Origin: a virus
Length of the DNA: 45,631 nucleotides
Virus record (IMG/VR): IMGVR_UViG_3300046739_000207
Span: 1-45,631 of that record
Strand: one strand, 5' to 3'
The notes under the pieces: model-generated
Seen by the model: only the letters and a program-made list of their open reading frames with translations
Database searches by the model: none
What the model was told of the DNA's origin: nothing
Program-made: the position numbers and the translations under genes
Shown here: positions 242-45,631 of the stretch, piece by piece
How the letters are laid out: every line of letters begins with the position of its first letter
Position numbering within the stretch: position 1 is the first letter of the stretch

Positions 242-283
242 TTGACAATGGTATAGCACTTGATATAAAGCTTTGCAAGCTTT
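242..283. promoter_or_regulatory. Interleaved divergent sigma70-like promoters plus a 17-bp near-palindromic operator candidate
   Basis: Rightward promoter: TTGACA 242-247, 16-nt spacer, TATAAA 264-269. Leftward promoter (minus strand): TTGCAA 278-273, 17-nt spacer, TATACC 255-250, ending 9 nt before the ATG at 240. The palindrome AAAGCTT-tgc-AAGCTTT at 267-283 overlaps the rightward -10 and the leftward -35. Confidence 0.45.
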
Positions 284-326
284 ATTTTTCTTAGCGTTTT
301 CCAATTCATACTCTGGAGGAGCTTTT

Positions 327-611
327 ATGGCAGTCATACTCGCAACTTATCCGCACGTCCACGAAAGAAAAAATCAAGTCGTTGAAAACACAACGAAAAA
401 ACCTGTTGCATCTGTTAGGCACTCAGGTGTACTCTGTCACCCGATGGCAAAGAACAAACCAAAACCGGAAAAGATTCAGATCAGGCCCACAGACGAAGAT
501 TTCGCCATTATTGAGGCTGGCAAGAAGAAACACGGCCTCGACCAAACCCAGATCATCCGAATGGCCCTCCGTAGACTGGCAGAGGCCGACAATCTAAAGG
601 TAGCGGGCTAA
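327..611 (+). CDS. Ribbon-helix-helix (CopG/Arc-type) DNA-binding regulator, rightward arm
   Basis: ORF 273..611 trimmed to the ATG at 327, which follows GGAGGA (315-320). The C-terminal KIQIRPTDEDFAIIEAGKKKHGLDQTQIIRMALRRLAEA is an RHH motif. Confidence 0.6.
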   Translation: MAVILATYPHVHERKNQVVENTTKKPVASVRHSGVLCHPMAKNKPKPEKIQIRPTDEDFAIIEAGKKKHGLDQTQIIRMALRRLAEADNLKVAG

Positions 612-622
612 AGGACTTAGCA

Positions 623-1093
623 ATGCTGGGCAGAGAACAAAACACGTCTGTAGGTTCTGATAATACAACAGATATTATGATGAATGGCCACGTCCGCCAT
701 TCCTACCCGCCTAACCTAAGGGAATTCCAATCTTCTGCTTTCAGAAAAGTTGCAAATCTTTACGCATACTTAACTACCTTAGGCCGTACCATCCCTGCCC
801 TAGTTGCTAAGTGGATGCTGGCCATGGCCGCCCCTCTTCGCCGTATTGTTGCGCGGGAATTAGAAATCCTGAACCCGAGGCCGAAATACTACATTTACAG
901 CCTGCTAGACACGCTGGAATGTGGTCACGCTCAAAGTGTGTACCTGTTTAACGGCCTCTTAGACCTTCTTAACGCCTACACCGAAAACCGAGCAGTCAAA
1001 GCACGGAGACACCGTTGTGTCCCTTGTGCTTCCCTGCTTGCCAAAAAGAAACCGCAGTCGGTTCCCTTACCCGCCGTTGCAGCGACGGCTTAA
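623..1093 (+). CDS. Hypothetical protein (156 aa)
   Basis: ORF with an AAGGA-like SD, in the same orientation and tightly spaced with its neighbours. No motif recognised. Confidence 0.5.
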   Translation: MLGREQNTSVGSDNTTDIMMNGHVRHSYPPNLREFQSSAFRKVANLYAYLTTLGRTIPALVAKWMLAMAAPLRRIVARELEILNPRPKYYIYSLLDTLECGHAQSVYLFNGLLDLLNAYTENRAVKARRHRCVPCASLLAKKKPQSVPLPAVAATA

Positions 1094-1142: not shown

Positions 1143-1958
1143 ATGTCTCAAGAAATTCCAGTCCATCCGGCAGCTCTACTTTTCCCGATGATGGTTCCCG
1201 AAGACCTAGGCAATCTTGCCGATGATATTGCCGCCAATGGCTTGATGGAGCCAGTCGTTCTCTACCACGGACAAGTACTGGATGGGCGCAACCGGCTAGC
1301 AGCCTGCGAAATGGCGAGTATTGAGCCGCGATTCGTGGAAGTTGATGGCGAACTTCCTTCCGCAACTATCTATGTGCTTTCCAAGAATCTTCACCGCCGG
1401 CATTTGACCACGAGCCAACGGGCTGCTGTGGCCGCTGAAGTTGTTCCATTACTTCAAGAGGAAGCCCACTCTAGGCAATTGTCAGGACTTAAAAATCAAC
1501 AACATACCTCGTCAGCACTAAAACGTGCTGACGACAATCATGGGAAAACTTCAGTACTTGCAGCCAAGGCCATGCAGGTCGGGAGTACGGCGGTCGATAA
1601 AGCGCTCCAAGTGAAAAGGGAAGCTCCTGAGGTATTTGAACAGGTGAAGCGTGGCGAAGTTAATTTGCACGCAGCCAACAGAGCACTGCCCAGCAAGCGC
1701 AAAGCCGATCCTGGAGCTGCATACGAACCGAAAACTGACCACCAAAAGAAACGGGCAGTCATACAGAAAGAACGCATGATCTCCGCGTTGTCCAACGTTA
1801 CTGGCCTCTGCCGTGGACTGGCAGACGAATTAGACCTGCCTATGGCGCTCTCCGTATGCAGTAAAGAAGACAGAGACATGGTGATTGACCGCGCCCATGA
1901 ATCCGCAAAACACCTTCGGGCCTTCATCGCCAAAATCGAAAGGACAGACAATGCCTAG
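1143..1958 (+). CDS. ParB/Srx-fold N-terminal domain protein (ParB-like nuclease/NTPase domain)
   Basis: The N-terminus ...IPVHPAALLFPMM...LADDIAANGLMEPVVLYHGQVLDGRNRLAACE... matches the ParBc pattern (conserved D-G-x-x-R box), followed by LSKNLHRRHLTTSQRA. GAGGG SD precedes the start. Confidence 0.7.
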   Translation: MSQEIPVHPAALLFPMMVPEDLGNLADDIAANGLMEPVVLYHGQVLDGRNRLAACEMASIEPRFVEVDGELPSATIYVLSKNLHRRHLTTSQRAAVAAEVVPLLQEEAHSRQLSGLKNQQHTSSALKRADDNHGKTSVLAAKAMQVGSTAVDKALQVKREAPEVFEQVKRGEVNLHAANRALPSKRKADPGAAYEPKTDHQKKRAVIQKERMISALSNVTGLCRGLADELDLPMALSVCSKEDRDMVIDRAHESAKHLRAFIAKIERTDNA

Positions 1959-2757
1959 TCCTGCAAAGCTTGCCAAGATGGGCAAGCCTACATCCAAAAT
2001 GCTTCGCGTTCGTGCTGATACCTTGCAGCCTCATCCCATGGCGCAGCGTGAACTTGTGCCTTCGCGCCTGCGGAAGTTGAACGCCTCGCTCGATCTGGAC
2101 GCTATCGGCGTTCTGCACGTTGTCCAGTATGCCATCAAAGGCAAAACAGCTATGTGGATTGTTGACGGTCAACACCGCTGGCGTTCTTTGATGGACAACG
2201 GCTTTGGCGAATGGGAAGTAGAACTAAAACTACATTCTGATGTGACCGATGACGCTGGGGCTTCCGCTCTCTTCTTGAAGCTGAATGACCGTTCGCCCGT
2301 CAGCCCTTATGACAAATTTCTGAATCGACTCATGGCGAAAGAAGACGACGCTATCAGCATCAATGACATCGTGCTCAAGCACAAAATGAAGATTTCCCGC
2401 AGTGCTGCGGATGGTCACATTGTCGGCATCGGAGCACTGGAAAAGACCTACCGTCTGGACGAAGGCGAAGCACTGGACAAGACCTTGGGGCTCATCACGG
2501 AAGCCTGGGGATTGCGTTCAATTGATGCCAAGGTAATTGAAGGTCTTGGGCTGGTTTGTGCGCGGTACAACGGAACGCTTGAGTACCCGGCATTCGTCAG
2601 AAAACTATCGAAGTACCCCGGCACAGCTACAGGGCTAGTCGGCGATGCGCGCAAGCTAATGGACTTTCGCAAAGTAGCGCTATCTCGTGCCATTGGTGAA
2701 CTTGCAATCGGACTTTACAACAAGGGCCGAAGCTCTGGAAAGCTGGACCCTCTGTGA
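1951..2757 (+). CDS. DGQHR-motif ParB/Srx-superfamily protein (DndB-like family)
   Basis: ORF 1885..2757 trimmed to the ATG at 1951 (AAGGA SD, 8-nt overlap with the upstream stop). Key motif: LRVRADTLQPHPMAQRE...AMWIVDGQHRWRSL, containing a literal DGQHR. Confidence 0.65.
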   Translation: MPSPAKLAKMGKPTSKMLRVRADTLQPHPMAQRELVPSRLRKLNASLDLDAIGVLHVVQYAIKGKTAMWIVDGQHRWRSLMDNGFGEWEVELKLHSDVTDDAGASALFLKLNDRSPVSPYDKFLNRLMAKEDDAISINDIVLKHKMKISRSAADGHIVGIGALEKTYRLDEGEALDKTLGLITEAWGLRSIDAKVIEGLGLVCARYNGTLEYPAFVRKLSKYPGTATGLVGDARKLMDFRKVALSRAIGELAIGLYNKGRSSGKLDPL

Positions 2758-3155
2758 ACACATTTGCTGCGAAGTATCTAGCTGGGAGGCCGGAGATCCG
2801 TGGCGAATCTGGGCGATCACTCGGGTGGGGTGGTCGCCTGGAAAGTTTAAAAGTTCCTGTCCGAGATTTCGATTACCAGCACTTAGCTCAGTGGGCCGAG
2901 TGCCAAAAAGTTCCAAAGTTTGCCGGCAAAGCGGAACTGACCGCTAGCGATTCCTGCGGGCTTGCGGGGTGCGGGTGCCGTTCGACTCGGCGTCCGGGTC
3001 GTTTCAGTCTGCTGGCGAACCTGCGCTGGTCCGGGTTAGTGGCCAGCACAATTTTCACCTTGCCGGAACCCCTCCGTGCAACTCCGGCAAATCTGAGGGT
3101 AGCCCCGTCGAGCTGCCCTCAGTCTTTCATCTTCCGAATTGGAAAGTTTTTGTAG
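2754..3155 (+). CDS. Doubtful hypothetical ORF (133 aa, GTG start overlapping the upstream stop as GTGA). This is the alternative reading of the structured region.
   Basis: The ORF is open, but its translation is Arg/Gly-rich and low-complexity in the C-terminal half. All three plus frames are largely open here, and strong hairpins lie inside it. Confidence 0.25.
   Translation: MNTFAAKYLAGRPEIRGESGRSLGWGGRLESLKVPVRDFDYQHLAQWAECQKVPKFAGKAELTASDSCGLAGCGCRSTRRPGRFSLLANLRWSGLVASTIFTLPEPLRATPANLRVAPSSCPQSFIFRIGKFL
2763..2803 (+). repeat. Right copy of the direct repeat (21-bp perfect core at 2783..2803)
   Basis: Exact 21-mer match to 67..87, lying immediately after the stop codon of the DGQHR gene (2755..2757). 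Confidence 0.9.
2804..3150 (+). ncRNA. Candidate structured RNA or cis-acting DNA element (hairpin-dense region)
   Basis: Hairpins and motifs read directly. (1) GGCGATCA 2812-2819 pairs with TGGTCGCC 2831-2838. (2) GTTCC 2910-2914 pairs with GGAAC 2933-2937, enclosing the perfect palindrome TTTGCCGGCAAA at 2919-2930. (3) Three tandem TGCGGG units lie at 2955-2975. (4) TTGCCGGA 3060-3067 pairs with TCCGGCAA 3083-3090. (5) CTGAGGG 3093-3099 pairs with CCCTCAG 3116-3122. (6) A small hairpin plus T-run lies at 3131-3151. Confidence 0.3.
3131..3151 (+). terminator. Weak intrinsic-terminator-like hairpin plus T5
   Basis: In cttccgaattggaaagttttt, TTCC pairs with GGAA (4-5 bp stem), followed by TTTTT. 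The short stem makes this weak. Confidence 0.25.
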
Positions 3156-3206
3156 CAGGCATCGGTTTTTGGGCTGTGATTTACAGACTTTGGAAATGAG
3201 GACGCC

Positions 3207-3353
3207 ATGGATGAACTGGCTAAAACCTGCTTAGAGATTCTGCTCTCGCCCTACCCTGAGCAGCATGACGGCTCAACCATAACCGAGATCGAAGCAGCAG
3301 TTTTACGGGCAGAGATTCACGCTGCTGGAAAGAAGGCCGACCGTGATTTGTGA
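3207..3353 (+). CDS. Small hypothetical protein (48 aa, below the ORF-track cutoff)
   Basis: ATG at 3207 follows GAGGAC. Translation: MDELAKTCLEILLSPYPEQHDGSTITEIEAAVLRAEIHAAGKKADRDL. Confidence 0.45.
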   Translation: MDELAKTCLEILLSPYPEQHDGSTITEIEAAVLRAEIHAAGKKADRDL

Positions 3354-3519
3354 AGACTGCCACAAGCCTCTGGGCGATTACCCGTATTCACGCGCTTACA
3401 CCTGCTCAGAGTGTCTATCAACTCTTTGCTTCGATTGCCATGAAGCACATGAGCAGAACGCTCACAGCTCAGATTCGAAACTTTCCGCAGAGCTGGCCTC
3501 TGCACAGAGGATTGCATGA
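3343..3519 (+). CDS. Small zinc-finger protein (58 aa, GTG start)
   Basis: Translation: (M)ICEDCHKPLGDYPYSRAYTCSECLSTLCFDCHEAHEQNAH..., with the pattern CxxC...CxxC...CxxCH. SD GAAAGAAGG lies 6 nt upstream. The stop overlaps the next ATG as ATGA. Confidence 0.5.
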   Translation: MICEDCHKPLGDYPYSRAYTCSECLSTLCFDCHEAHEQNAHSSDSKLSAELASAQRIA

Positions 3520-3860
3520 GCAAACTTAATCCGAATGCGCAGAAATGGGTTGACGCCCTGCGAAGCAGAAAATATCAGCAGGCGCGGTGCAATCTTAGAA
3601 ATGGCGATTCATTCTGCTGTCTAGGCGTGGCGTGCGACATATCTGGGATTGGAACCTGGACCGAATCCGGATACACCATCAACCATTACGGAAATAATAA
3701 GTTACTACCGAAGAAAGTCAGGAATTGGCTGGGACTTAAAGACACTTCTGGTTCTTATGGTACAACGCATCTCGCATGGGAAAACGATTATGGAAAAACT
3801 TTCGAGCAAATCGCTGACGTGATCGAAGCCTACGCCGACGAACTTGGAGTGAGCGCATGA
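3516..3860 (+). CDS. Conserved-looking hypothetical phage protein (114 aa)
   Basis: ORF with ATGA coupling at both ends. Contains CCLGVACD and NDYGKTFEQIADVIE motifs. No family assigned. Confidence 0.6.
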   Translation: MSKLNPNAQKWVDALRSRKYQQARCNLRNGDSFCCLGVACDISGIGTWTESGYTINHYGNNKLLPKKVRNWLGLKDTSGSYGTTHLAWENDYGKTFEQIADVIEAYADELGVSA

Positions 3861-4015
3861 ATCTCCCCAGCATCCAACGTGCAGCCTTTCAAGAAACCAG
3901 AGAGCGCAAAGAGTTCCGCGAAGAGAAGCAGGAACCACGCTGGCCGCTGGCTATCTTGGCAGTTCTCTTCGGGACCGCAGTCTGGGTATACGGCAAACTT
4001 TTTGGAGCCTGGTAG
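3857..4015 (+). CDS. Small membrane protein (52 aa)
   Basis: ATGA overlap with the upstream gene. The C-terminal WPLAILAVLFGTAVWVYGKLFGAW looks like a TM helix. The stop TAG abuts the next ATG. Confidence 0.45.
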   Translation: MNLPSIQRAAFQETRERKEFREEKQEPRWPLAILAVLFGTAVWVYGKLFGAW

Positions 4016-4249
4016 ATGAAAGTTTCAATTGAGTTTTGCATATGGCTGCAGCGGAACTTTGATGCGGTGATTGAGCATCTGCCCGAATGGCACGAAGGCA
4101 AGCCGGAGCCTACGCTCCCGGTGCCTATAGCTGTCCCGGCAGTGAGGCCTCCCGCAATGGAGATTGAGACCGAGCAATTTCGCAGACTCATTGAGGCCAT
4201 GAATAAATCAAACGAGGCTGATCGGAAGAAATCACGGTGGCCATTTTGA
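4016..4249 (+). CDS. Hypothetical protein (77 aa)
   Basis: ORF in the operon with an abutting start. Confidence 0.5.
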   Translation: MKVSIEFCIWLQRNFDAVIEHLPEWHEGKPEPTLPVPIAVPAVRPPAMEIETEQFRRLIEAMNKSNEADRKKSRWPF

Positions 4250-4398
4250 TCGACCTTCGCAGTAACACGATTAGATGGTTGTGCCAAACCATCAGCGAGT
4301 TGCAGAAGCGTAATTGGCAGCTTGAACAGGAGAATGCCAGATTGAAAAAGAATGCCAAAATAAGGCAGCAGCCGAAAACAATGGCGGCGAAGGCATGA
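4246..4398 (+). CDS. Small coiled-coil protein (50 aa, TTG start)
   Basis: TTGA overlap with the upstream stop and ATGA overlap downstream. Translation: ...ISELQKRNWQLEQENARLKKNAKIRQQ. Confidence 0.35.
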   Translation: MIDLRSNTIRWLCQTISELQKRNWQLEQENARLKKNAKIRQQPKTMAAKA

Positions 4399-4658
4399 AC
4401 AATCCTTACGCGGTACAAACCGTTAAATGTGCTGGCCCTGGATGTGAGCACGTGCGAAAGGACTGTAACCACTGGTTCGTTATCAAGCACCCTATGTCCA
4501 AGGCAGTTACTTCATTTCAGTGTGAGCCGCTAATTGAACCTAAGAACCTGCGCCCATGGAATAAGCCAGTATGCGGACAGGCATGTGCTCAGAAATTATT
4601 CGAGAAATGGATGTCAGATCAGGTTGTACCGCCCAGCGGAGAAAAGGAAGTTAAGTAA
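4395..4658 (+). CDS. Cys-rich hypothetical protein (87 aa)
   Basis: ORF containing KCAGPGCEH...CNHW...CGQACAQK. Confidence 0.55.
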   Translation: MNNPYAVQTVKCAGPGCEHVRKDCNHWFVIKHPMSKAVTSFQCEPLIEPKNLRPWNKPVCGQACAQKLFEKWMSDQVVPPSGEKEVK

Positions 4659-5411
4659 ATGGCAACGCAAATTGAGTTACCTACAGCAAAAGAGATGCAA
4701 GTACGCCAGCCTACGACGATGAGCTTGATGTTGCTAGCTCTTGAGACTGGCAAAGTAGAGCAGCTTCAGATTCTCCAGGAGATGCACTTCAAGGAATTGG
4801 CCCGCAGCGCCGAAGTCGAGTTCAATCTGGCCATGAATGCGGCCCAAACTGAGATTATCCGCGTGGTTCCTGATGCCTACAATCAGCAGACTAAGAGCAA
4901 ATGGGCAACTTACGCGGCCCTGGACAAGATGCTGAGACCAATCTACACAAAGCACAATTTCAGTCTGTCGTTCGACTCCGGGGAAAGTCCAGCCGAAACA
5001 GTGATCGCTCATTGTTACGTTTCCCACGGCGCCGGCCATACCCGCAAGTACCAGAGTCCTCCAATGCCATTGCCGACCATGGGAGCACAGGGTAAAGCCG
5101 TTATGACGGCTACTCATGGCACAGGCGCGGCGATGTCTTATGCCAAGAGATACCTGCTCACATTCATTTTCAACATTCCAGTAGGCGAGGATGATACAGA
5201 CGGCAACGGGCCCGGTCCACAGATGGATCAGGACGAACTGAAAGAGCGTCTCGCCCACTTCCCCAAGTGCGACTCATTTGAGGAGCTTGAGCAGCACTTC
5301 CGCGCCTCCTACATGGAAGCCAAGAAAGCCAAAGACCAGGGCGCACTGGATGCCGTAATCATGGCCAAGAATACCCGCAAGGAACAACTACGCAAAGCGG
5401 GTGCCCAATGA
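4659..5411 (+). CDS. ERF-family single-strand annealing protein (recombinase)
   Basis: GTGAAMSYAKRYLLTFIFNIPVGEDDTDGN matches the ERF signature (G-x-x-x-S/T-Y-A-x-R-Y followed by an acidic tail). It is paired with the exonuclease gene downstream. Confidence 0.65.
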   Translation: MATQIELPTAKEMQVRQPTTMSLMLLALETGKVEQLQILQEMHFKELARSAEVEFNLAMNAAQTEIIRVVPDAYNQQTKSKWATYAALDKMLRPIYTKHNFSLSFDSGESPAETVIAHCYVSHGAGHTRKYQSPPMPLPTMGAQGKAVMTATHGTGAAMSYAKRYLLTFIFNIPVGEDDTDGNGPGPQMDQDELKERLAHFPKCDSFEELEQHFRASYMEAKKAKDQGALDAVIMAKNTRKEQLRKAGAQ

Positions 5412-6151
5412 ATGTCCCTGGAATCTATTACCCGCAGCCGGAATGGTTCAAGGCCCGTCTTGGCCTGATAACCAGTTCCAAAGTCCACGATGCCATTACC
5501 TTGAGGCAGAAGGGTGGCACTCACGATCTGGCCGACCGCCGCAGGCTCAAAATGCAGCTAATTGCCGAGATGACTACGCGCCAAACTCCTGAGCACTACG
5601 TCTCCGCAGCAATGGACTGGGGCATTGAAAACGAGCCTAGGGCCAGAGCTGAATATGAATATCGTACCGGCCAGAACGTTGAACAACTTGGTTTGGTCAT
5701 GCACCCTAATAACCCTCGGGCCGCGGCTACAGCGGACGGCTGGGTAGCTCCTGAAGGCATTCTGGAGATTAAGTGTGCCGAAACCTACACCCATCTTGAG
5801 TATCTTGCCAGCAATGCCATTCCGAAAGAATATTTAGACCAAATCAACTGGCAAATGGCCTGTTGTGGGCCAGAAATCGCCTGGTGCGACTTCGTAAGCT
5901 TTGACCCAAGGATTGAGGCCGAAGAACTACAGTTGCTCGTTATACGGCATCAGCGAGACGAAAAACGCATTGCCGAGATGGAGTCCGCAGTAGACGACTT
6001 CCTTACCGAAACTATCCAGTTGTTTGAACAGATAAAGCGTGGCGCCAAATACCCGACAGTAGAAGCCAAGCTTCGCGAGAGCATCCGACAGGCCGGTAAG
6101 TACCCAGACTTTGACGCAGAACTTCAGATTACCGAACAGGACATCGCTTAG
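5408..6151 (+). CDS. YqaJ/lambda-Exo-like PD-(D/E)XK exonuclease
   Basis: ITSSKVHDA..., ENEPRARAEYE..., ADGWVAPEGILEIKC fit the D...E-x-K YqaJ pattern. ATGA overlap with the ERF gene. Confidence 0.7.
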   Translation: MNVPGIYYPQPEWFKARLGLITSSKVHDAITLRQKGGTHDLADRRRLKMQLIAEMTTRQTPEHYVSAAMDWGIENEPRARAEYEYRTGQNVEQLGLVMHPNNPRAAATADGWVAPEGILEIKCAETYTHLEYLASNAIPKEYLDQINWQMACCGPEIAWCDFVSFDPRIEAEELQLLVIRHQRDEKRIAEMESAVDDFLTETIQLFEQIKRGAKYPTVEAKLRESIRQAGKYPDFDAELQITEQDIA

Positions 6152-6163
6152 AGGGACAGAGAA

Positions 6164-6991
6164 TTGCCAGAATCAGCAAAGTATCTTGCCATTAAAAACT
6201 GGAACAAGTATCAGCCCTCCAGAAACGGGAAGGCCTCACCCTGGGTGAAGGACTACACAGACAAGGAATTGGATGCCGATTACATGCGCCTAACGTGCCT
6301 CCAGAGATACGTTTTAGATGGCTGCTGCAGGCTTCGCGGCCGGTCAGGAAAGAACCTTCCAAATGATGCTACGACGCTTGCACGACTACTGCACGTTGCA
6401 CGCACGGATGCTCCACACATACCTCACGCTGTAAGTACGCTGCTTACACGCGGGTTTTTGGTCCTTTCGAATCAACAACTTGATTTTACAGATAAAGATA
6501 AAGAAGAAGAGAAAGAGATAGACAAGAGTAAGAAAAAACCTTCCGCGAAACCAGTTCGCGGGACCAGTTCCCCAGGACAAGTTTTGCCAAAGGATTTAAG
6601 GCACGCCAGAGTTCGGAGTTTGGTCATGAATGCCTACCACGAGCAAACCGGAGCAGATTGCCCTTGGGACGGCGGCGAAGGTTCCCAACTTAAAGCTCTT
6701 TTGGCTGCAACTCCAGGTTGGCACGATACCCAATTGGCGCAGTGTTTAGTGAATATGTACGCTTCTGGCGGGTTTGCGAAAGGCACCAGGCCGAGAGAGT
6801 TTTTGCCGCGATTGCCGAAGTATTTGCATGGGCCGTTAAACGAATTTAACAGGGAGCAAGTCAATGGAAACAAAGGTGTTTCAGCCTCTAAAGCCGAAGA
6901 AAGGGACCGACGCATTGAAGAAAACACTAAACGGGTCGCAGCCGAGTTTGAGCGACTTCATCGCGGCGATCCAGCGGCACTATCGGACTGA
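6164..6991 (+). CDS. Putative replication organiser / DNA-binding protein (275 aa, TTG start)
   Basis: Assigned by position after the recombination genes. A Lys/Glu-rich linker separates two domains. No family recognised with certainty. Confidence 0.5.
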   Translation: MPESAKYLAIKNWNKYQPSRNGKASPWVKDYTDKELDADYMRLTCLQRYVLDGCCRLRGRSGKNLPNDATTLARLLHVARTDAPHIPHAVSTLLTRGFLVLSNQQLDFTDKDKEEEKEIDKSKKKPSAKPVRGTSSPGQVLPKDLRHARVRSLVMNAYHEQTGADCPWDGGEGSQLKALLAATPGWHDTQLAQCLVNMYASGGFAKGTRPREFLPRLPKYLHGPLNEFNREQVNGNKGVSASKAEERDRRIEENTKRVAAEFERLHRGDPAALSD

Positions 6992-7331
6992 CTGGTCAGA
7001 TGCGGAAATTTCCGATTGGATGGCTGGGCTGCAAGGCTACTCACATCGGGATCTTCACAAGGCGCTACAGAGGCTGATTTATCACCCGCCAAACGATTTC
7101 AGTGGCTGCCCTAATCTGCCTACTTTCCTGCGAACCTTGCGCGAGATTCAAGAAGAAATATCGCAGAAGATGCAGGCAGCCGGCGAGTTCAAGAACCATG
7201 CTGACCGAAATTGCGAGACCTGTAAAGGCAGCTCTTGGGTGCTCACGAAGGATTATTCCGGCAACGATGCGGTTTATCGCTGTGAGTGCTGGAAACGAAA
7301 CACTGAAGGACTTGTAAGGGAGCCAAAATGA
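6864..7331 (+). CDS. Hypothetical protein with C-terminal CxxC...CxC zinc motif (155 aa)
   Basis: ATG at 6864 is preceded by AGGGAG. It overlaps the upstream gene by 128 nt in another frame. The alternative ATG at 7020 has no SD. Confidence 0.5.
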   Translation: METKVFQPLKPKKGTDALKKTLNGSQPSLSDFIAAIQRHYRTDWSDAEISDWMAGLQGYSHRDLHKALQRLIYHPPNDFSGCPNLPTFLRTLREIQEEISQKMQAAGEFKNHADRNCETCKGSSWVLTKDYSGNDAVYRCECWKRNTEGLVREPK

Positions 7332-7597
7332 GCACACAAGCCACAAACGTACGTCACACTCAAATCGTTCCCCTGGAAGAGATTTACAAAGAAGTTCAGC
7401 TTGGCTCCAGGTGGGAATACCTCATTGCCGAAGCAGACACAATGAACTTCGATAGCGCTTTGGTCGAGAAATTCAGAACTCGCTACCAAGCTTGCCAGTG
7501 TGCTATTGGCGTGAGGTCTCTGATTGTTAGCAGAGGCTTGCCGTTATTCGTGAAGAGAAAGCAGCGTGAGGTCTTTATATGGAAGCGGAGACAGTAA
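7328..7597 (+). CDS. Hypothetical protein (89 aa)
   Basis: ATGA overlap with the upstream gene; GGGAG SD. Confidence 0.5.
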   Translation: MSTQATNVRHTQIVPLEEIYKEVQLGSRWEYLIAEADTMNFDSALVEKFRTRYQACQCAIGVRSLIVSRGLPLFVKRKQREVFIWKRRQ

Positions 7598-7605
7598 GAG
7601 AGCCG

Positions 7606-7692
7606 ATGGTTGAGCTGCACGATATTTACTGCCTATGTGAGCGCTGCGTTGAGCGGCGAGAGTCTGAAAAGGTGCGGAGAGAGACGAAGTGA
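7606..7692 (+). CDS. Possible micro-ORF (28 aa) coupled to the methyltransferase start
   Basis: Translation MVELHDIYCLCERCVERRESEKVRRETK. The stop overlaps the GTG start of the next gene as GTGA. The SD is weak. Confidence 0.25.
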   Translation: MVELHDIYCLCERCVERRESEKVRRETK

Positions 7693-8321
7693 AGCCCTAT
7701 TACGAACATAACGGAATTAGCATTTTTCATGGTGACTGTAGAGATGTGCTCACGCATCTGCCGGGCTTCCCTGTGATTATCTCTGACCCGCCTTATGGAA
7801 TTGATTACAAACCTTTGCGCGGCTCCAATGGATCGAAGATGTGGTGCGACGAAACAGTTCACGGCGATGATGCCGACTTTGATCCGCGCTGGCTTCTATC
7901 GGAGCAATTTGCAGGGTGTTTGCTGTGGGGCGCTAATCACTACAGCCACCTGTTGCCGCCTTCGCGTGGTTGGCTCTGCTGGGATAAGACGACGTCTGGA
8001 ATACGCGAAGGATTTATCTATTCACATTTTGAACTTGCATGGACGAATCTGACAACTCGCGCTCACAAATTCAACCTCAACTGGCAGGGTTCGGACAGGA
8101 ATGAGGACTTTTTTCACCCAACGCAAAAGCCGATACCACTCATGGAGTGGTGCGTTGGTTTTGCCGCTGCTGAGTTGCCAATAGTTGACCCCTACATGGG
8201 CAGCGGTACGACACTAATTGCTGCCAAAAACCTAGGACGGAGAGCAGTAGGCATAGAGATAGAGGAAAAGTACGCTGAAATAGCCGCCAAGAGATTGAGT
8301 CAGGAAGTGTTTCAGTTCTGA
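7689..8321 (+). CDS. DNA methyltransferase, beta-class (N6-adenine or N4-cytosine), DPPY motif
   Basis: Motif IV IISDPPYGIDY lies upstream of motif I VDPYMGSGTTLIAA, with FHPTQKPIPLMEW between them. This is the classic N4/N6 MTase layout. Confidence 0.85.
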   Translation: MKPYYEHNGISIFHGDCRDVLTHLPGFPVIISDPPYGIDYKPLRGSNGSKMWCDETVHGDDADFDPRWLLSEQFAGCLLWGANHYSHLLPPSRGWLCWDKTTSGIREGFIYSHFELAWTNLTTRAHKFNLNWQGSDRNEDFFHPTQKPIPLMEWCVGFAAAELPIVDPYMGSGTTLIAAKNLGRRAVGIEIEEKYAEIAAKRLSQEVFQF

Positions 8322-12555: not shown

Positions 12556-14969
12556 TAGTCTCCAGCCTTTGCAGTGCGCGTCTTCTTGTTTTTCTCAATC
12601 TGTTTTTTCATGTTCTCAACCGACCAATCGGTTGTTGGAGGCTCAGCGGGAACCTCGCCAGTGAGGCTGGTGGTGCCTAAAAGACCTTTTGCCTTTAGTT
12701 GATCTTCATATACCTTCCAAATTTTAGGCCCGTTGCCACTATAATCCATGTTCTTGATTTGATCGGCCAATTTAGCGAGAGATGTTTCGCGGGGCTCGTA
12801 CCCTAATTGATGGTTTACGATAGAATCATTAAGCCGATATTCTCCAGTGAGACGGTCGAAATATAATTTCCCCGTCGCTCCGTTTCCCCCAACCGATACC
12901 ATGGAATCTGGCAGATCAGCAACATGCCCCTGGATTTGGCCTTTTACCTTAGCATTCCTGAGCAGTGGTTCGCCGGCTGGGCCTTTTTGGGGTAGAAGAT
13001 CGCCGCTGACTTCATATAATGGCTTGCCGCTGGACTTCAGCCCAAGCGTTTCAAAGCCGACCCCGGATGAATCATTTATCCACTGTCCATTGACCTTTAT
13101 TTGCCTATATACACTAACTCCAGGTAGTGCTTGTCTATCCATCGCATTTGTGCTGGTGCCGGATGATGGAGGCTTGCCATAACGCACAAAGCGCTCAGCC
13201 TCAATATCGGACGGATTTATTTTTGAAACCGCTTGCTGGCCCTGTGGGGTTGCGGATGGTTTTGAGCCAGCACCCTTCTCCGCAGGCATGCGGCCTATTG
13301 TAGCATTCCTCTTGCTGTCAAGGGACTCATCTATATAATTCCCATTGGTTGTTGGGGGCTCAGCGGGAACCTCGCCAGTGAGTGTGGCCTTCATCTGTCC
13401 CGGATTACGCTGTATTGAATCAAGCTCATTCATTCGCCGCTGCACATCGGAAATTGCGGTCTGATTTCCTGCGGTTTGGGCGGATTTTAGTTCTGCCCGT
13501 AGCTGGTCAAAGCGATAGCTGAAATAATCTTTAATGCCTTGATCGGTGGAACGTTCAAACGTTCTTTTTTGTGGTGCCTTGATCCCGCGCTCTTCGACTG
13601 CCGGTGTAAATGGCTTGCCTTCAACTGGTACTTCGCCGTTTGGCCGCGTGGCAATCGTTTTCTGTGCGCGCGCGTTAGCAGTCAGGGTGCCTTTAGTTTC
13701 TCCCGGCACATTGCGCGCAAACCAGTCTCGTTTTTCCTGCGAGAGTGCTTGCCTTCCGTGGCCTTCAAGGTCTTCACGCATCTGCTCTTGAATGCCTTTG
13801 GTTTCCAGTCTGTCTTGTGCTCCGCCAAACTTCAGTGGCTGAATAGCGGACGGTCTTTCAGGAGGCCATGTCGATTGAACTGGAACTTCGCCCTTGGGCT
13901 GGGCTTTGACCGGAGGAATTGCTGCTTCGGTAGGTTGGCCGGTTCCGAGTAACCCTTTAGGCTTAAATACCTGCCGTGGCGTTATAGTGGCCGCATCTTG
14001 AATCTGATTCCCGCGCATCCGATACGGAGCTGGCTTAGTTTCAGGCGGAGCTATTACGTCTGTGTCACCCGACGGGTTTACTTTTAGATCGCCTTGGTAC
14101 GGTTGGTAGGGTCCGCGAACTTCTCCCCTGGAGGCAGATTGAATTGGTAGATCGCTTGTTGGCTTCGGAGCTGTAATATCCGCAAGTTTCCCGGAAAGTC
14201 TTTGAAGATGCGCTAATCTCGGAGAAGCCAATCCGACAACATCAGGATTTCCAGCTTTGGATAAGGCGGATGAAGCACGGTGAATTAGATTAGGCTGGCC
14301 TGTTGGCCGGCCCGCTGGAATCTCTGCCGGAACTTCACCTGTCCAAACATTTGGAGGCGGCAGTGCTCCACTTCGCGCCTCAGGCATTAGCCGTGCGGCT
14401 CCGAAAGGTGCAAGAATTCCAGCGGTAGTTCCTGCGGCACCAGATACATCCCCTGAGCCCAATTGTTCACCAGCCGTCGCAGGGCTCTCGCCGAATACCG
14501 GAGCCAGAGCAGTTGCACCTGTATAACCAGCAGACCCCACTTGATGCGCTAAATATCCCTTTATGTCGCCGCGCTTCAATGCTTCGGTAGCCGCCCGATC
14601 TTCGTCCATACTCTTACGCGCATTCGTAGCGATAGCATGAGGCGCCTGTAGGAGCATGCTCGCCCCTGGAGTAGCATCGAGTAGCGCTGATCTAATGGGA
14701 TGTTCGTGGGCTTCTAATGTTGAAGCCTGAAGCTGTTCAGGTGTGGCCCCAAAGACGGATAGCGCGCTATGGACGGCATGTGCCATTTTTGGATACTCAG
14801 CAGCCGTTGGATTCTGATCGGCCTGTGTCGGCATCCCATGGCCCATTAATCGCGTAAGATTCGGGTCGGTCGCAGGATCAGGTTTCTGCTCTTCGTCGCG
14901 GATTTCCGCGCCCTCGGGAATAGGAATATCCCCAACAGTGGCTCCCTGCGGAATTGGCATGGCGCTCAT
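12555..14969 (-). CDS. Large internal virion / ejection-type protein (804 aa) with reiterated GEVP modules
   Basis: Assigned by position between the tail genes and the fibre. It carries five x-G-E-V-P motifs, two of them encoded by a 36-bp near-identical DNA repeat (12630..12665 and 13347..13382). Confidence 0.5.
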   Translation of the reverse strand: MSAMPIPQGATVGDIPIPEGAEIRDEEQKPDPATDPNLTRLMGHGMPTQADQNPTAAEYPKMAHAVHSALSVFGATPEQLQASTLEAHEHPIRSALLDATPGASMLLQAPHAIATNARKSMDEDRAATEALKRGDIKGYLAHQVGSAGYTGATALAPVFGESPATAGEQLGSGDVSGAAGTTAGILAPFGAARLMPEARSGALPPPNVWTGEVPAEIPAGRPTGQPNLIHRASSALSKAGNPDVVGLASPRLAHLQRLSGKLADITAPKPTSDLPIQSASRGEVRGPYQPYQGDLKVNPSGDTDVIAPPETKPAPYRMRGNQIQDAATITPRQVFKPKGLLGTGQPTEAAIPPVKAQPKGEVPVQSTWPPERPSAIQPLKFGGAQDRLETKGIQEQMREDLEGHGRQALSQEKRDWFARNVPGETKGTLTANARAQKTIATRPNGEVPVEGKPFTPAVEERGIKAPQKRTFERSTDQGIKDYFSYRFDQLRAELKSAQTAGNQTAISDVQRRMNELDSIQRNPGQMKATLTGEVPAEPPTTNGNYIDESLDSKRNATIGRMPAEKGAGSKPSATPQGQQAVSKINPSDIEAERFVRYGKPPSSGTSTNAMDRQALPGVSVYRQIKVNGQWINDSSGVGFETLGLKSSGKPLYEVSGDLLPQKGPAGEPLLRNAKVKGQIQGHVADLPDSMVSVGGNGATGKLYFDRLTGEYRLNDSIVNHQLGYEPRETSLAKLADQIKNMDYSGNGPKIWKVYEDQLKAKGLLGTTSLTGEVPAEPPTTDWSVENMKKQIEKNKKTRTAKAGD

Positions 14970-16391
14970 TTACTGGGCTGGCCTCATGGTCTTACCGTCT
15001 TTCGTGTAGCCGACTAGTTTTCCTTGGTGGTAGACTGGCTTTTCCCCTTCTTGCGCGCCGCCACCTTGGTTGCTTTGCTGTAGCGCTGGCTTATCGCCAA
15101 TCTTGCGTTTCCCGAAGACTGTCTCCGCTCCCTTGGGAGGATTTACCCCGTACATCGTGGCGGCATCATGCGCACCCTGCACAGCTCTGTCCCTGGCTTC
15201 ATACCCCAGATCGAGCATTTGCTTCATCTGGTCCGGCCCGAGAGTCACGCCGGAAAGATACCCACGGTCATCGAATTTAGAGCCGATCTTGGCGAGCCAC
15301 GGCTGGGACTGAGTAGCTTCGTTGAGAATGTCTTTCGTGATGCGCGCGCCCTTCTGCATTCCCAAAGTCATACCGATATGATCAGTCAAAAGCGCCAGCA
15401 TGGCTTGCTGATCGCCCTTTAACCCTTTGGAATAAGAGGCTTCCATGCGCGAAAGGCGAGTATCAGCATCCAGCGCCGTTTCAAATCTCTTATTCGAGGC
15501 TTCGGTATTCTTTTCATCAAATCCCTTGCGCTGGCGCTCGTCTGCGGCTGCACTAGCGCGTGCCTGCTGATCAATGGTTTCTTGGCTATGCTGGGAATGC
15601 GCACGATTGGCCGAATCAACCAAAGGCTTCAAATCTGGGGGTAATTTCGGGTCATTGATGTCGTATGTTTTCTTCCCATCAGTCACACTGACTGGAATAC
15701 CTTGGTCGTAGGTGATGTGCGGAGCCTGTGCAGGCTTACCTTCGATGGCGGCCTGTTTGATTGCCTGATAGGCTTCCATGTATGTGTACGGCTTCCCTGT
15801 CTGTGGGTTCTGTCTGGGTGCTCCATTCTCACCAGTCATCAGGTCATGTAGCGTGGTTTCTTCAGGCGTCAGCCCTTCTTTGGGTTGAGGATTTCTGAGA
15901 GCTTCCGCGTGAGCATTCTCCTCACTTGCTTTGGCCGTCAGTTCGCCGGTCTGCGCTGTCTGCTGAGCTTCTTTGCTCGGAGCTTCATACTCTGCCGTAT
16001 CGTTTTTGTATTTCTCCTGCGCCCTTTTTTCAGGCATTTCATTGAAGACTTTGTTGGTAATCGGATTAAAGGCCGCCATGGTATGACCGAACTTTGCCCA
16101 TCCGTGTGGCTCCGCTGGAGCATAATCGGACCATTGTGGGCGAGGTTGAGTAACCGCAGGAGCTGCAGGAGCAGGCATTGCGGGAAAATCACTGCGTTTG
16201 GCAATTGCTCCTGGTGCAGCCACAGCCATTGATGCATCAGAAGACGGGCCTGGAGCAGGAGGCGGAGCTGATGCTGGTTGAGCGCCAACATCAAAGGTTC
16301 TGGCGGGTGAAGCCGGGGGGTATTCTTCCTGGCGCCGCCGTTCTTCTTCGTCGTCCGGAGCTTCTACCGGGTCGTAATCAATATCTGGCAT
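14970..16391 (-). CDS. Internal virion / ejection-type protein (473 aa)
   Basis: Pro/Ala-rich N-terminus with a helical, charged body. Abuts both neighbouring genes. No enzymatic motif recognised. Confidence 0.45.
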   Translation of the reverse strand: MPDIDYDPVEAPDDEEERRRQEEYPPASPARTFDVGAQPASAPPPAPGPSSDASMAVAAPGAIAKRSDFPAMPAPAAPAVTQPRPQWSDYAPAEPHGWAKFGHTMAAFNPITNKVFNEMPEKRAQEKYKNDTAEYEAPSKEAQQTAQTGELTAKASEENAHAEALRNPQPKEGLTPEETTLHDLMTGENGAPRQNPQTGKPYTYMEAYQAIKQAAIEGKPAQAPHITYDQGIPVSVTDGKKTYDINDPKLPPDLKPLVDSANRAHSQHSQETIDQQARASAAADERQRKGFDEKNTEASNKRFETALDADTRLSRMEASYSKGLKGDQQAMLALLTDHIGMTLGMQKGARITKDILNEATQSQPWLAKIGSKFDDRGYLSGVTLGPDQMKQMLDLGYEARDRAVQGAHDAATMYGVNPPKGAETVFGKRKIGDKPALQQSNQGGGAQEGEKPVYHQGKLVGYTKDGKTMRPAQ

Positions 16392-41645: not shown

Positions 41646-41890
41646 TCCATTGCCTCCAGTGCATCTGCTAGCTCACGTAACGCTTCTGGCCGCGTCTGGC
41701 CTGTGCCATGAGCAACCCACTTCTTAGCGTCTACGTCGTACGCTTCAGCGATAAACTCCTCGCCGATGTTTGACCAAGCACAGACTACTTCCAGTTCCAT
41801 CTCGTCCGACTTCAACCGGCTCACGGCTTCACCTGCCAAGGCTCGCTCATCAAACTCCGCATCCGCAGCCTCCCCATTCGTGCTTGTCAT
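41642..41890 (-). CDS. Small acidic hypothetical protein (82 aa)
   Basis: ORF. The start is uncertain because it overlaps the upstream stop by 41 nt. Confidence 0.45.
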   Translation of the reverse strand: MTSTNGEAADAEFDERALAGEAVSRLKSDEMELEVVCAWSNIGEEFIAEAYDVDAKKWVAHGTGQTRPEALRELADALEAME

Positions 41891-45153: not shown

Positions 45154-45567
45154 TCAGCTTGACGATTTTTTAGGGCAAGGTTTTCCATTCCCGCCGGCAT
45201 GTCTTTTTTTGTGGCAGTCTGAACAGCTTGCTATTGAGCACTTAGGGCTGAGACAGTCACATTTGTTGGCGCCATGTCTGGTATGGCTCCACTCGGTTGG
45301 AGGGTTTGGGCAACGATAAATGTGGAAGCATCGGCGCCCTTCATTGCACCCCGGCAATGGGCACCTGATGATTTCTTCACAGTAGCGGCCGGCACGTTCA
45401 AATACTTCGGCCCTGCGTTTATCTCTTGCACTGCCATACAAACGAACACGCAGATGTCCGCCTGAACGCTCGGAATGCACAACCCGAGGCTTTGCACGTC
45501 TCTTTGGTATTGGTTTTTGGCGAGAAATCACGGTACAAACCCTTTCAGGTTTGCCGCGAAGGATCAT
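45154..45567 (-). CDS. HNH-type / zinc-finger nuclease-like protein (137 aa), crossing the assembly junction
   Basis: The pattern RAGRYCE...C..PGC...WSHTRHGANKCDC...CSDCHKKRH is an HNH-like Cys/His arrangement. Its first 63 nt lie in the terminal repeat. Confidence 0.4.
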   Translation of the reverse strand: MILRGKPERVCTVISRQKPIPKRRAKPRVVHSERSGGHLRVRLYGSARDKRRAEVFERAGRYCEEIIRCPLPGCNEGRRCFHIYRCPNPPTEWSHTRHGANKCDCLSPKCSIASCSDCHKKRHAGGNGKPCPKKSSS

Positions 45568-45631
45568 TGGTGGGAGGCCGGAGATCCGTGGGTTGTCTAA
45601 AACTTAGTCTTATTTCTCTTTGGCGTCAAGG
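45505..45631. repeat. Second copy of the 127-bp terminal direct repeat
   Basis: Identical to bases 1..127. Confidence 0.95.

Follow-up and report, generated by a model that had tools for sequence, protein, structure and literature searches.

The two overlapping genes near the start of this phage genome form a conserved, self-contained, translationally coupled early cassette that is carried by temperate phages and prophages across several bacterial phyla. Gene 1, the upstream one of the two (1143 to 1958, forward strand), has an ATG start and encodes an orphan ParB-type protein of 271 aa, made up of a ParB N-domain, an HTH region and a C-terminal helical hairpin. The second (gene 2; 1951 to 2757, forward strand) encodes a 268-aa protein of the DUF6551 family, whose N-domain has the ParB/Srx fold and whose C-terminal domain is all-alpha. 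The window, meaning the whole stretch of 45,631 nucleotides that was analysed, is a complete circular genome with a unit of 45,504 bp, its first 127 nt being identical to its last 127 nt. Comparison of the window with known phages gave no nucleotide similarity at blastn level, and an Rfam search of it returned nothing. This phage genome of about 45.5 kb, with its two overlapping early genes, was called temperate-type.

The original prediction had described two coupled genes with an 8-nt overlap, and these were located as such: the start of gene 2 lies over the stop of gene 1 in ATGCCTAG at 1951-1958. An SD-like AAAGGA at 1938-1943 precedes the overlap, the two together making up a translational coupling element (1938 to 1958, forward strand), and the ATG of gene 2 sits within a longer ORF with a TTG start (1885..2757). 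Homologue pairs in annotated phages have the same kind of overlap, of 1-14 nt, which implies coupled expression. The pair does not open the rightward operon as had been proposed, because two ORFs on the same strand come before it. The first gene of the rightward unit is a ribbon-helix-helix (RHH) ORF (327 to 611, forward strand), with GGAGGAG ahead of the ATG at 327 and a putative cro-like role; an analogous 91-aa TacA1/NikA-like gene precedes the pair in the relative loci L091 and L092. Between the cro-like gene and gene 1 lies an ORF of 156 aa (623 to 1093, forward strand), for which family searches gave no match and which is kept upstream of the pair only in loci L004-L006 (2.3e-39). The RHH ORFs of the window are divergent, and their intergenic region holds a tentative sigma-70-like promoter, TTGATA-17-TATTTT (260 to 288, forward strand), identified as a consensus match, with such matches not exceeding those in shuffles. 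Downstream, an apparently non-coding stretch of roughly 450 nt after gene 2 (2758-3206) contains a terminator-like hairpin of 11 pairs (3093 to 3122, forward strand), which may mark the end of the first rightward unit.

Gene 2 was placed in DUF6551 through its family, the window protein alone falling below the Pfam reporting level. Among 35 aligned relatives, whose identity to gene 2 goes down to 30%, 27 match Pfam PF20188 (DUF6551; best 6.7e-27), and many homologues carry a precomputed PF20188 label. At 50% identity the family falls into 9,575 clusters (E<=1e-3), and its members nearly always stand alone at 250-290 aa (~265 aa). In Foldseek, the AF2 model of gene 2 (pLDDT 92.2) matched Noc (2e-4), ParB-CDP (4e-4) and sulfiredoxin (2e-3), with a TM of 0.73-0.82 to uncharacterised phage proteins and a weak fold similarity to Osa (E 0.6). 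These matches, with an invariant DGQHR loop, make gene 2 a member of the ParB/Srx superfamily, in agreement with the original prediction. The motif IVDGQHRW that had been read in gene 2 is present literally (aa 70-77). Its residues D72-G73-Q74-H75-R76 (2164 to 2178, forward strand) form a predicted phosphate-binding loop, equivalent to box II of ParB and to the DGHHR of SerK; gene 2 aligns to SerK IVDGHHRW, and weak sequence matches to SerK and SbnI are centred on the loop. In the family alignment A1 the loop is invariant at D72, G73, Q74 and R76, with H75 conserved to at least 90%, and wherever the motif search located it, which was in all loci but L042, the motif is literally DGQHR. Q32-R33 (2044 to 2049, forward strand) correspond to the 'QR' motif of the DndB/DUF262-like branch, Q32 being invariant and R33 at least 90% conserved in A1.

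The proposed DGQHR/DndB-like character of gene 2 held for the pocket, which is that of the DndB/DUF262-like branch, but not for the named families. TIGR03187 (DGQHR) scored 15.4 bits against a cut-off of 58.85, the DpdB model reached 11 bits against 300, and Pfam DndB (PF14072) matched three of the 35 relatives weakly, at 5e-4 or worse. The only Pfam scores for gene 2 itself were sub-threshold (ParBc_2, 16.9 vs 23.6 bits; GmrSD_N, 14.8 vs 33.2 bits), and its all-alpha C-terminal domain gave no nuclease match.

Gene 1 also proved to be ParB/Srx-like, as had been suggested. Its family profile matched Spo0J (1vz0, E 6.6e-7) and Noc (6.7e-4) in the PDB, and its AF2 model (pLDDT 90.8) matched Spo0J (4.9e-5), CDP-bound ParB, Noc and KorB in Foldseek, the best structural matches being Spo0J, Noc and KorB. 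PHROGs assigned it to phrog_21315 (3.5e-24) and to the ParB-like phrog_4715 (3e-13), and a Pfam search gave no match at E<=1, the threshold of PF02195 (ParB_N) not being reached. The N-terminal ParB/Srx domain (aa 1-113; 1143 to 1481, forward strand), delimited by secondary structure and by alignment to Spo0J, has the alpha/beta ParB fold and a GxxR loop with invariant G48 and R51; in the family alignment A2, D47, G48, R49, N50, R51, N82, R85 and R86 are all invariant. The predicted LDGRNR was found literally at aa 46-51, as part of a box II variant, LDGRNRLAA (codons 1278-1304), and is followed by a box III-like KNLHRRHL. In the Spo0J alignment, DGRNR stands opposite GERR and NLHRR opposite ENLQR. 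The Q/R residues of box I are replaced by HPAAxLFP, and because gene 1 lacks these residues of the CTP-hydrolysing ParBs, its own nucleotide binding is uncertain. The HTH DNA-binding region (aa 133-180; 1539 to 1682, forward strand) aligns to the Spo0J HTH (residues 127-190 of 1vz0), with helices at 133-143, 148-160 and 162-169 in the AF2 model. The C-terminal hairpin (aa 199-270; 1737 to 1955, forward strand; helices 199-229 and 241-270) persists in the partner protein even where the ParB N-domain is absent, and OldBen gp45 matches gene 1 in this hairpin only. The two genes had been called tandem paralogues; the superfamily fold is indeed common to both, but the hhalign probability between their families is 1.8%, and recent paralogy was therefore rejected.

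Conservation of the pair was followed across the loci of the DUF6551 gene. Close relatives carry both genes on the same contigs. A gene-1-type ParB gene lies directly upstream of the DUF6551 gene in 37 of 90 loci, and an iterated profile recognised a gene-1-like partner immediately upstream in 71 of 88 loci, leaving 17 with none recognisable. Upstream partners match either in the N-domain and the C-terminal part (41) or in the HTH/C-terminal part only (29), and a partner is present in 15 of the 17 loci of an independent GTDB genome set. The constants across loci are the DUF6551 gene and its overlapping upstream partner, the partner's ParB N-domain being found only in some lineages; the window has this arrangement, with an HTH and hairpin partner directly upstream of, and overlapping, its DUF6551 gene. 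M. abscessus prophages, cluster F1 mycobacteriophages, Gordonia phages and Staphylococcus phages 85 and SA2P all have a leftward repressor, a rightward cro-like gene and then the pair, which puts the cassette directly behind the repressor/cro switch in the annotated phages of Mycobacterium, Gordonia and Staphylococcus. Distribution within phage clusters is patchy, and only some F1 mycobacteriophages have the cassette. Microcystis phage MinS1 has no partner, and its DUF6551 protein is fused to an Lsr2 DNA-binding domain, both Pfam matches being above threshold. The gene-1-type N-domain (HPAAxLFP...LDGRNR) is fused to Dam (PF05869) and DUF4326 in relatives and also matches a methyltransferase of Agrobacterium phage Rivra. 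Tractable carriers of homologues are the cluster F1 mycobacteriophages and Staphylococcus phage 85, where the homologues are ORF013 and ORF016.

The reading that we prefer, held tentatively and at a probability a little short of even, is that the cassette encodes a DNA-bound complex, gated by a nucleotide, with a regulatory or organising role soon after derepression. We regard it as neither a means of partition nor an enzyme that modifies DNA, and it does not work with the PAPS-reductase-like gene or the methyltransferase of this phage. Both proteins would form one DNA-bound complex, in which the HTH of the partner would supply DNA targeting and its conserved C-terminal hairpin would dimerise and/or dock the DUF6551 subunit. 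CTP or ATP at the DGQHR pocket might switch the complex between states, by analogy with CTP on ParB, Noc and KorB and with ATP modulating the DNA binding of the DGQHR protein DndB. Expression would be driven from the early rightward promoter right after derepression, and the cassette would most likely regulate or organise the DNA transactions of the phage (or host) in the early part of lytic development. The Lsr2 fusion that takes the place of the partner in MinS1 argues for DNA association, and the invariant DGQHR pocket argues for nucleotide gating. Passages of a preprint describe binding of CTP or ATP in DRaCALA by phage ParB-fold/DUF6551 proteins, which are other family members than gene 2 (bioRxiv 10.1101/2025.10.10.680097). 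Several observations weigh against a gated complex: no recurrent binding-site palindrome was found above shuffles, the 17 of 88 loci have no recognisable partner, and gene 1 lacks the box I Q/R residues. An early place beside the switch would suit anti-defence or host-takeover genes equally well, and ParB/Srx proteins can also be nucleases or NTPases.

An anti-defence or host-takeover effector, acting as an early counter-defence or host-shutoff module, is unlikely but retains an appreciable share of the probability. The cassette might act as a ParB/Srx NTPase/nuclease, depleting a nucleotide signal, nicking host DNA or blocking host DNA-sensing, with the HTH partner regulating or targeting it. 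Such accessory genes cluster at the immediate-early place beside the immunity switch, and the patchy, mosaic distribution, exemplified by the F1 mycobacteriophages, is in keeping with them. NTPase and nuclease activities are known from ParB/Srx members such as Osa, to which gene 2 has its weak fold similarity, and for DndB a possible role as an effector that limits nucleotides has been discussed (PMC10853773, PMC12839542). However, the best fold matches are DNA-clamp ParBs and not Osa, and searches of the pair against PADLOC and anti-defence families gave nothing beyond a marginal DpdB match (E 0.0087). The Lsr2 fusion of MinS1 and the HTH of the partner point to a DNA-bound role rather than a soluble, nucleotide-degrading one, and the mycobacteriophage overexpression screens of Girr and NormanBulbieJr, neither of which mentions ParB-like genes, yielded no phenotype data.

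Erf-type annealase and exonuclease genes lie downstream of the cassette in the window and in some relatives, with ERF and DnaB in L001, and this placement would suit a replication or recombination accessory, namely an origin- or DNA-end-binding factor that readies DNA for the Erf/exonuclease recombination and replication genes. Such a role is quite improbable. Homologues of the window Erf and exonuclease accompany the cassette in only 8 of 89 and 5 of 89 loci, respectively, the downstream modules of other phages differ widely (RecA-like ATPase, DNA polymerase I, Gp2.5-like SSB), and relatives have a separate putative replication module.

Still less probable, at under one chance in ten, is that gene 1 is a centromere-binding ParB for an extrachromosomal prophage, working with a host ParA or independently of ParA on a centromere downstream of gene 2. 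The ParB N-domain and HTH of gene 1 are the architecture for this, and no integrase was detected in the window: six tyrosine integrases and one serine resolvase from retrieved loci, together with phage 85 ORF007, gave no match as queries, nor did an HMM built on those tyrosine integrases. For the 410-aa and 462-aa ORFs, comparison with PDB sequences was empty or insignificant. The relatives, however, are integrated prophages with integrases right beside the cassette, and this complete genome has no ParA. The ParA-type Walker A motif KGGxGK[ST] is absent from every window ORF of at least 50 aa, and the sole P-loop-bearing window ORF with a family assignment is the terminase; classical partition is therefore unlikely, as the original prediction had already held. 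Gene 1 also has no N-terminal ParA-binding motif of the LG(K/R)GL type, and the ParB N-domain of the partner is dispensable in many lineages. The centromere would lie in the non-coding stretch after gene 2. Three of the four genomic copies of GGAAAGTTT fall within 2840-3486 (0.45 copies expected genome-wide), but the same 9-mer count is reached by 9 of 449 windows of 700 nt, the cluster being no outlier and rejected as a special site, and the downstream non-coding region is not conserved in relatives. Genome-wide, counts of repeated, parS-type palindromes were at or below those of shuffles, with no recurrent palindrome, and no notable repeat families were found in the window. The only perfect long palindrome near the two genes, TGTTGACGGTCAACA (15 bp, 2160-2174, in gene 2), was considered as a parS-like site. 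It is merely the codons for I-V-D-G-Q-H, is not conserved, and was rejected because the closest relative has GTG GAT GGC CAG for the same residues.

The original prediction had joined the pair with two further genes, both of which are where it placed them. The PAPS-reductase-like gene (41850 to 42608, reverse strand; phrog_424, 5e-34) is separated from gene 1 by 4,039 bp of the circular map, and the DPPY methyltransferase at 7689 to 8321 matches PF01555 (1.4e-16). A dispersed DNA-modification system, phosphorothioation- or IbrAB-like, made of the pair, a PAPS-reductase/DndC-like PP-loop enzyme and the methyltransferase would account for their presence in one genome, for the DGQHR that gene 2 has in common with DndB and DpdB, for the weak match of the PAPS-like protein to an SspD-like PP-loop (8.6e-6) and for the occasional fusion of gene-1-type N-domains to Dam-type methyltransferases in relatives. 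The three families do not co-vary. A PAPS-family HMM, run over +-10 kb around the DUF6551 gene, found nothing in 89 other metagenomic/viral loci and nothing in 17 GTDB genome loci, so that no PAPS homologue turned up near the gene in 106 other loci. The closest PAPS relatives (89% identity, 45.9-kb contig) lie in a different operon, and the +-10 kb around them holds no ParB pair. Of the 52 phage records that carry a gene 2 homologue, none is among the PAPS-homologue records listed, and the whole genome of MinS1 has no PAPS homologue. The top matches to the two families also differ in the lengths of their longest contigs. Both the gene 2 and the PAPS families circulate in cluster F1 mycobacteriophages. 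Homologues of the window methyltransferase were found near only 13 of 89 DUF6551 loci.

The core of the dnd system consists of DndD and DndE, DndC (a PP-loop protein with a cysteine dyad) and DndA (PMC10853773). The PAPS-like protein, which had been proposed to be DndC-like, has no NCBIfam match at E<=0.01, and so no DndC-type match, and no Pfam match. Three window ORFs have a P-loop (the terminase, an 83-aa ORF and a 473-aa ORF at its extreme C-terminus), none of them a DndD-type ATPase, and neither DndA nor DndE was found among the window ORFs scanned. The ORF that overlaps the start of the PAPS gene has no ParB-type GxxR motif and no family match. A PDB match of the PAPS-like protein is 'PptA', on which nothing relevant was found in the literature. 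With the TIGR03187, DndB and DpdB models failing as well, the dispersed modification or anti-defence system is largely refuted by the lack of co-variation and is the most improbable of all the readings considered. It fails on two of the grounds that the original prediction had itself set for its refutation, the absence of co-variation with the PAPS-reductase gene and the failure of the profiles, PF02195 and TIGR03187 among them.

A hidden phosphorothioation- or IbrAB-like system can thus be set aside, and no mass spectrometry chase is needed on this phage. DUF6551 comprises thousands of clusters, mostly behind the conserved partner (71 of 88 loci), and adjoins the temperate-phage immunity switch in annotated examples. 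The module structure, the position and the fusion to a DNA-binding domain turn annotations of the type "hypothetical ParB-like nuclease domain protein" into a testable model of an NTP-gated, DNA-bound complex, which also indicates the domains to mutate. More speculatively, and with a probability clearly below that given to the gated complex itself, the cassette could represent a very widespread and hitherto unrecognised class of nucleotide-gated two-protein DNA switch, deployed immediately after derepression by temperate phages of Actinomycetota, Bacillota, Acidobacteriota and other phyla, and controlling the lysis-lysogeny programme or early phage DNA transactions. DUF6551 would then be the invariant NTP-sensing core, and DNA targeting would be interchangeable among a ParB-HTH partner, an HTH-only partner and a fused Lsr2.

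Among known systems, the phage ParB-CTPase-fold proteins of DUF6551 (PF20188) treated in the preprint are likewise stand-alone proteins of ~265 aa of phage or prophage origin; the passages of it that were consulted mention neither a conserved upstream partner nor a place beside the immunity switch (bioRxiv 10.1101/2025.10.10.680097). DndB and other TIGR03187 proteins, including DpdB, have the ParB/Srx fold and the QR...DGQHR pocket in common with gene 2. DndB is described as an ATP-modulated DNA-binding regulator (PMC10853773), which would be the kind of mechanism proposed here for the cassette. It differs in the C-terminal domain, with gene 2 at a TM of ~0.33 to DndB-like viral models, and in context, neither dnd genes (A, C, D or E) nor a dpdA/dpdC context having been found in the window. 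Fusions of ParB_N with N6_N4_Mtase/Dam are described as phage-enriched in passages of the same preprint (bioRxiv 10.1101/2025.10.10.680097). Their N-domain is like that of gene 1, but gene 1 itself has the HTH and hairpin instead of a methyltransferase, and the separate methyltransferase of the window does not co-vary with the cassette. GmrSD and BrxU combine a DUF262 N-domain with a C-terminal DUF1524 HNH domain, from which gene 2 is set apart by its sub-threshold GmrSD_N score and the lack of a nuclease match.

The two IbrAB genes lie side by side, IbrA having DUF3440 at its C-terminus. The window resembles this system in having ParB-fold and PAPS-reductase-fold proteins in one phage genome, but the predicted IbrA/IbrB-like pairing does not hold: the genes are about 4 kb apart on opposite strands, no DUF3440 Pfam domain was detected, and the 106 other loci show no co-variation. 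The orphan ParB CTP switches Noc and KorB are like gene 1 in having an N-domain and an HTH with no ParA partner. They differ from it in that gene 1 has no box I Q/R and has DGRNR, not GERR, in box II, and no cognate palindromic sites were found in the window. In KorAB, a small partner protein modulates a ParB-type DNA clamp, whereas in the present cassette the second protein is itself of the ParB/Srx fold, and it is this protein, not the ParB-HTH protein, that is the invariant component.

The window was found to be a complete, circularly assembled genome with a 45,504-bp unit, because nucleotides 1-127 are identical to 45505-45631 and this 127-nt terminal identity is an assembler overlap. Its ParB-like gene (gene 1; 1143..1958, +; 271 aa) is followed by the DGQHR/DUF6551 gene (gene 2; 1951..2757, +; 268 aa), whose ATG start lies within a longer TTG ORF. 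As predicted, the stop of gene 1 runs over the start of gene 2 by 8 nt (ATGCCTAG), with an AAAGGA Shine-Dalgarno-like site ahead, and LDGRNR and IVDGQHRW are literally present in the respective translations. The two genes are not the first of the rightward operon, as had been supposed, since two same-strand ORFs precede them: one at about 327-611 (+), of the ribbon-helix-helix (RHH) type and with GGAGGAG ahead of its ATG, and one of 156 aa at 623-1093 (+). Another small RHH-like ORF (106-309, -) diverges from the 327-611 ORF, and a sigma-70-like match lies between the two at 260-288, so that the ORFs around this promoter-like site look like a repressor/cro switch. Between the 156-aa ORF and gene 1, a GC-rich hairpin without a T tract (GGGGCC-GGGAAACT-GGCCCC, 1100-1127) may serve in regulation or processing. 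Other genes of the window are phage-like, including an Erf-type annealase, an exonuclease, a Holliday-junction resolvase and a large terminase, and the anticipated N6/N4 methyltransferase and PAPS-reductase-like (PAPS-like) gene (41850-42608, -) are both present.

Both proteins have the ParB/sulfiredoxin fold that was originally proposed, while the ParB-like and DndB-like family labels gave way to an orphan ParB-HTH partner and DUF6551, respectively. The Pfam and TIGR03187 searches suggested for verifying those labels failed: gene 1 has no Pfam match, and gene 2 has sub-threshold Pfam matches only (ParBc_2 and GmrSD_N), with 15.4 bits against TIGR03187 (DGQHR; cut-off 58.85 bits) and 11 bits against the DpdB model (cut-off 300). 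The gene 1 family alignment has invariant D47-G48-R49-N50-R51 and N82/R85/R86, and its profile matches Spo0J (1vz0, 6.6e-7) over both the N-domain and the HTH, and also Noc. The predicted model (pLDDT 90.8) matches Spo0J, CDP-bound ParBs, Noc and KorB. It consists of a ParB N-domain (residues 1-113), an HTH (133-180) joined to it by a disordered linker, and a helical hairpin (199-270) at the C-terminus. On other contigs, N-domains of the gene 1 type (HPAAxLFP...LDGRNR) are fused to a Dam-type methyltransferase (PF05869) or DUF4326 (PF14216) (proteins P0213, P0233, P0237, P0227 and P0236); Agrobacterium phage Rivra has a methyltransferase that matches them as well.

For gene 2, Pfam DUF6551 is matched by 27 of 35 aligned relatives (best 6.7e-27); Q32, D72, G73, Q74 and R76 are invariant, with conservation of at least 90% at R33 and H75. 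PDB matches of its predicted model (pLDDT 92.2) are Noc, ParB-CDP and sulfiredoxin, and the model also matches uncharacterised phage proteins with TM 0.73-0.82. When 1.84 billion representative proteins were scanned in full, 9,575 clusters were found at E<=1e-3, nearly all of them stand-alone proteins of 250-290 aa. The predicted paralogy of the tandem genes is not detectable, as the profiles of the two families gave an hhalign probability of 1.8%; the genes are therefore distant members of one superfamily and not recent paralogues. Both proteins are new members of catalogued, uncharacterised families, and homologous pairs already stand in phage annotations under the generic name "ParB-like nuclease domain protein".

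Close relatives of the two proteins share contigs. Of 90 loci that have a DUF6551 gene, drawn from the window and from IMG/VR and metagenome contigs, 37 show a gene-1-type ParB gene immediately ahead of it, and an iterated gene 1 family profile matches 71 of 88 upstream ORFs. These partner matches cover the ParB N-domain and the C-terminal part in 41 cases, and the HTH/C-terminal part only, with a different N-terminus, in 29. The partner gp13 of an M. abscessus prophage has a canonical LLAGERRLAA box, and the likeness of mycobacterial OldBen gp45 to gene 1 is limited to the last ~120 residues. In an independent set of GTDB genomes, the partner is immediately upstream in 15 of 17 loci; the closest loci come from Solibacteraceae and Bryobacteraceae MAGs, suggesting that the phage host is acidobacterial. 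A related 47-kb phage contig (from an NCBI MAG) carries an IS605 OrfB/TnpB (Cas12f-like) gene in its early-left arm (4031-5125, -).

Annotated phages of six lineages (M. abscessus prophages, two kinds of cluster F1 mycobacteriophages, Gordonia phages, and Staphylococcus phages 85 and SA2P) share one arrangement, with a leftward immunity repressor and a rightward cro-like HTH gene followed first by the partner, about 290-320 aa long but 99 aa in Gordonia phage Bunker, and then by a DUF6551 gene encoding about 255-270 aa. The last two genes overlap by 1-14 nt, and in phages 85 and SA2P by 8 nt, as in the window. Bunker, whose DUF6551 protein is gp42, has a second "ParB-like nuclease domain protein" (gp47, 520 aa) 1.2 kb downstream (6040-7602 of that locus). 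In Microcystis phage MinS1 (MZ923504.1), a 403-aa protein annotated as "Lsr2 family protein" (3266-4477, -) consists of DUF6551 fused to an Lsr2 DNA-binding domain at the C-terminus, both Pfam matches being above threshold, and a gene-1-like partner is absent from the genome.

Sequence comparison shows two coupled genes, encoding a ParB-HTH partner conserved in its HTH and C-terminal hairpin and a DUF6551 subunit, which is invariant and whose DGQHR loop is conserved. The position of the cassette, beside the immunity switch, is that expected of early expression, and DUF6551, from its domain matches, occurs naturally fused to a DNA-binding domain. In a DRaCALA screen, phage ParB-fold/DUF6551 proteins bound CTP or ATP (bioRxiv 10.1101/2025.10.10.680097). 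The partner HTH would target the complex to DNA, its C-terminal hairpin would mediate dimerisation and/or docking of DUF6551, and nucleotide binding would switch the complex, which, right after derepression, would have a regulating or organising role on the DNA of the phage or the host. Taken as a whole, this layered proposal of a coupled cassette forming a nucleotide-switched, DNA-bound early complex is tentative, with slightly less than an even chance of being right. Three useful and testable points are added by this analysis: the conserved architecture of the cassette, its position by the immunity switch and the Lsr2 fusion.

The pair could instead encode an early effector of anti-defence or host takeover, which we consider unlikely, or an accessory of replication or recombination, which is distinctly improbable. 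Partition of an extrachromosomal prophage without ParA is more doubtful still: it draws on the integrase, which, like ParA, was not detected anywhere in the window genome with the queries used, but the relatives are integrated and parS-like sites are absent. There are no outstanding repeated palindromes or iterons in the window. A vaguely parS-like 15-bp perfect palindrome in gene 2 (TGTTGACGGTCAACA, 2160-2174) is formed by the I-V-D-G-Q-H codons and was rejected as a chance by-product, because relatives use other codons. After gene 2, a stretch of ~450 nt (2758-3206) with a strong hairpin of 11 pairs (3093-3122) is apparently non-coding; an ORF at 2754-3155 is oddly composed and lacks homologues. 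Of the four genomic copies of GGAAAGTTT, three lie within 2840-3486, together with related TCCAAAGTTT copies, and this loose cluster is statistically no outlier. The 2758-3206 stretch is not conserved in relatives, and an Rfam search of the window gave no match.

The original prediction had joined the pair, the PAPS-like gene and the methyltransferase (7689..8321) into a dispersed DNA-modification system whose three families should co-occur across relatives, and on that ground it is refuted and now scarcely credible. The PAPS-like family HMM has no match in the +-10 kb around DUF6551 at the 89 other loci and the 17 GTDB loci, and homologues of window neighbours are seldom near the cassette (methyltransferase in 13 of 89 loci, Erf in 8, exonuclease in 5, others in at most 5). 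Conversely, the ParB pair is absent within +-10 kb of the closest PAPS-like relatives (89% identical, 45.9-kb contig), whose operon differs: there the PAPS-like gene is followed by those of a 379-aa protein, an MT-A70 methyltransferase and a protein of 246 aa, all three missing from the window. That phage seems rich in modification enzymes, because it encodes a radical SAM protein and, after it, a Methyltransf_24 protein (14144-15774) and a cytosine-C5 DNA methylase-like gene (2706-3416).

Beyond these flanks, the comparison covered lists of phage records. Sizes of the longest contigs listed for the best 120 matches to gene 2 and to the PAPS-like protein never coincide, and no phage name occurs both among all 52 annotated records with a gene 2 homologue and among the more than 60 listed of the 80 with a PAPS-like homologue. 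Cluster F1 mycobacteriophages have both families, gene 2 in OldBen, Ramsey and Shauna1 and the PAPS-like gene in Llij, Drago and Eish; the PAPS-like family is frequent in mycobacteriophages of cluster A, F and J size (60/80 phage records). Among the records outside the list, Microcystis is the only shared genus, and MinS1, checked directly, lacks a PAPS homologue. Judged by the absence of the PAPS-like gene and the rarity of the methyltransferase, Erf, the exonuclease and other neighbours at these loci, the cassette is autonomous, and its description as self-contained and unrelated to the PAPS-like gene stands on far firmer ground than the mechanism.

Membership in a dnd system fails, because no DndD-type ATPase was found in the window and no DndA or DndE among its ORFs scanned, and IbrAB-type adjacency is absent from the window. 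The PAPS-like protein, which ends in GGCGCGV, has no match in Pfam or NCBIfam, a weak SspD-like PP-loop match, and a single match among PDB sequences (21fy chain C, E 1e-4), named "PptA", on which no literature was found. For DndB, the best-studied DGQHR protein, a regulatory role through ATP-modulated DNA binding has been described (PMC10853773). Viral proteins resembling DndB or GmrSD-N are no more than distant structural neighbours of gene 2. The DGQHR loop of gene 2 is the equivalent of the phosphate-binding box II of ParB and of DGHHR in SerK. In gene 1, DGRNR replaces the GERR of the canonical ParB box II, and HPAAxLFP stands where CTP-hydrolysing ParBs have the Q/R residues of box I.
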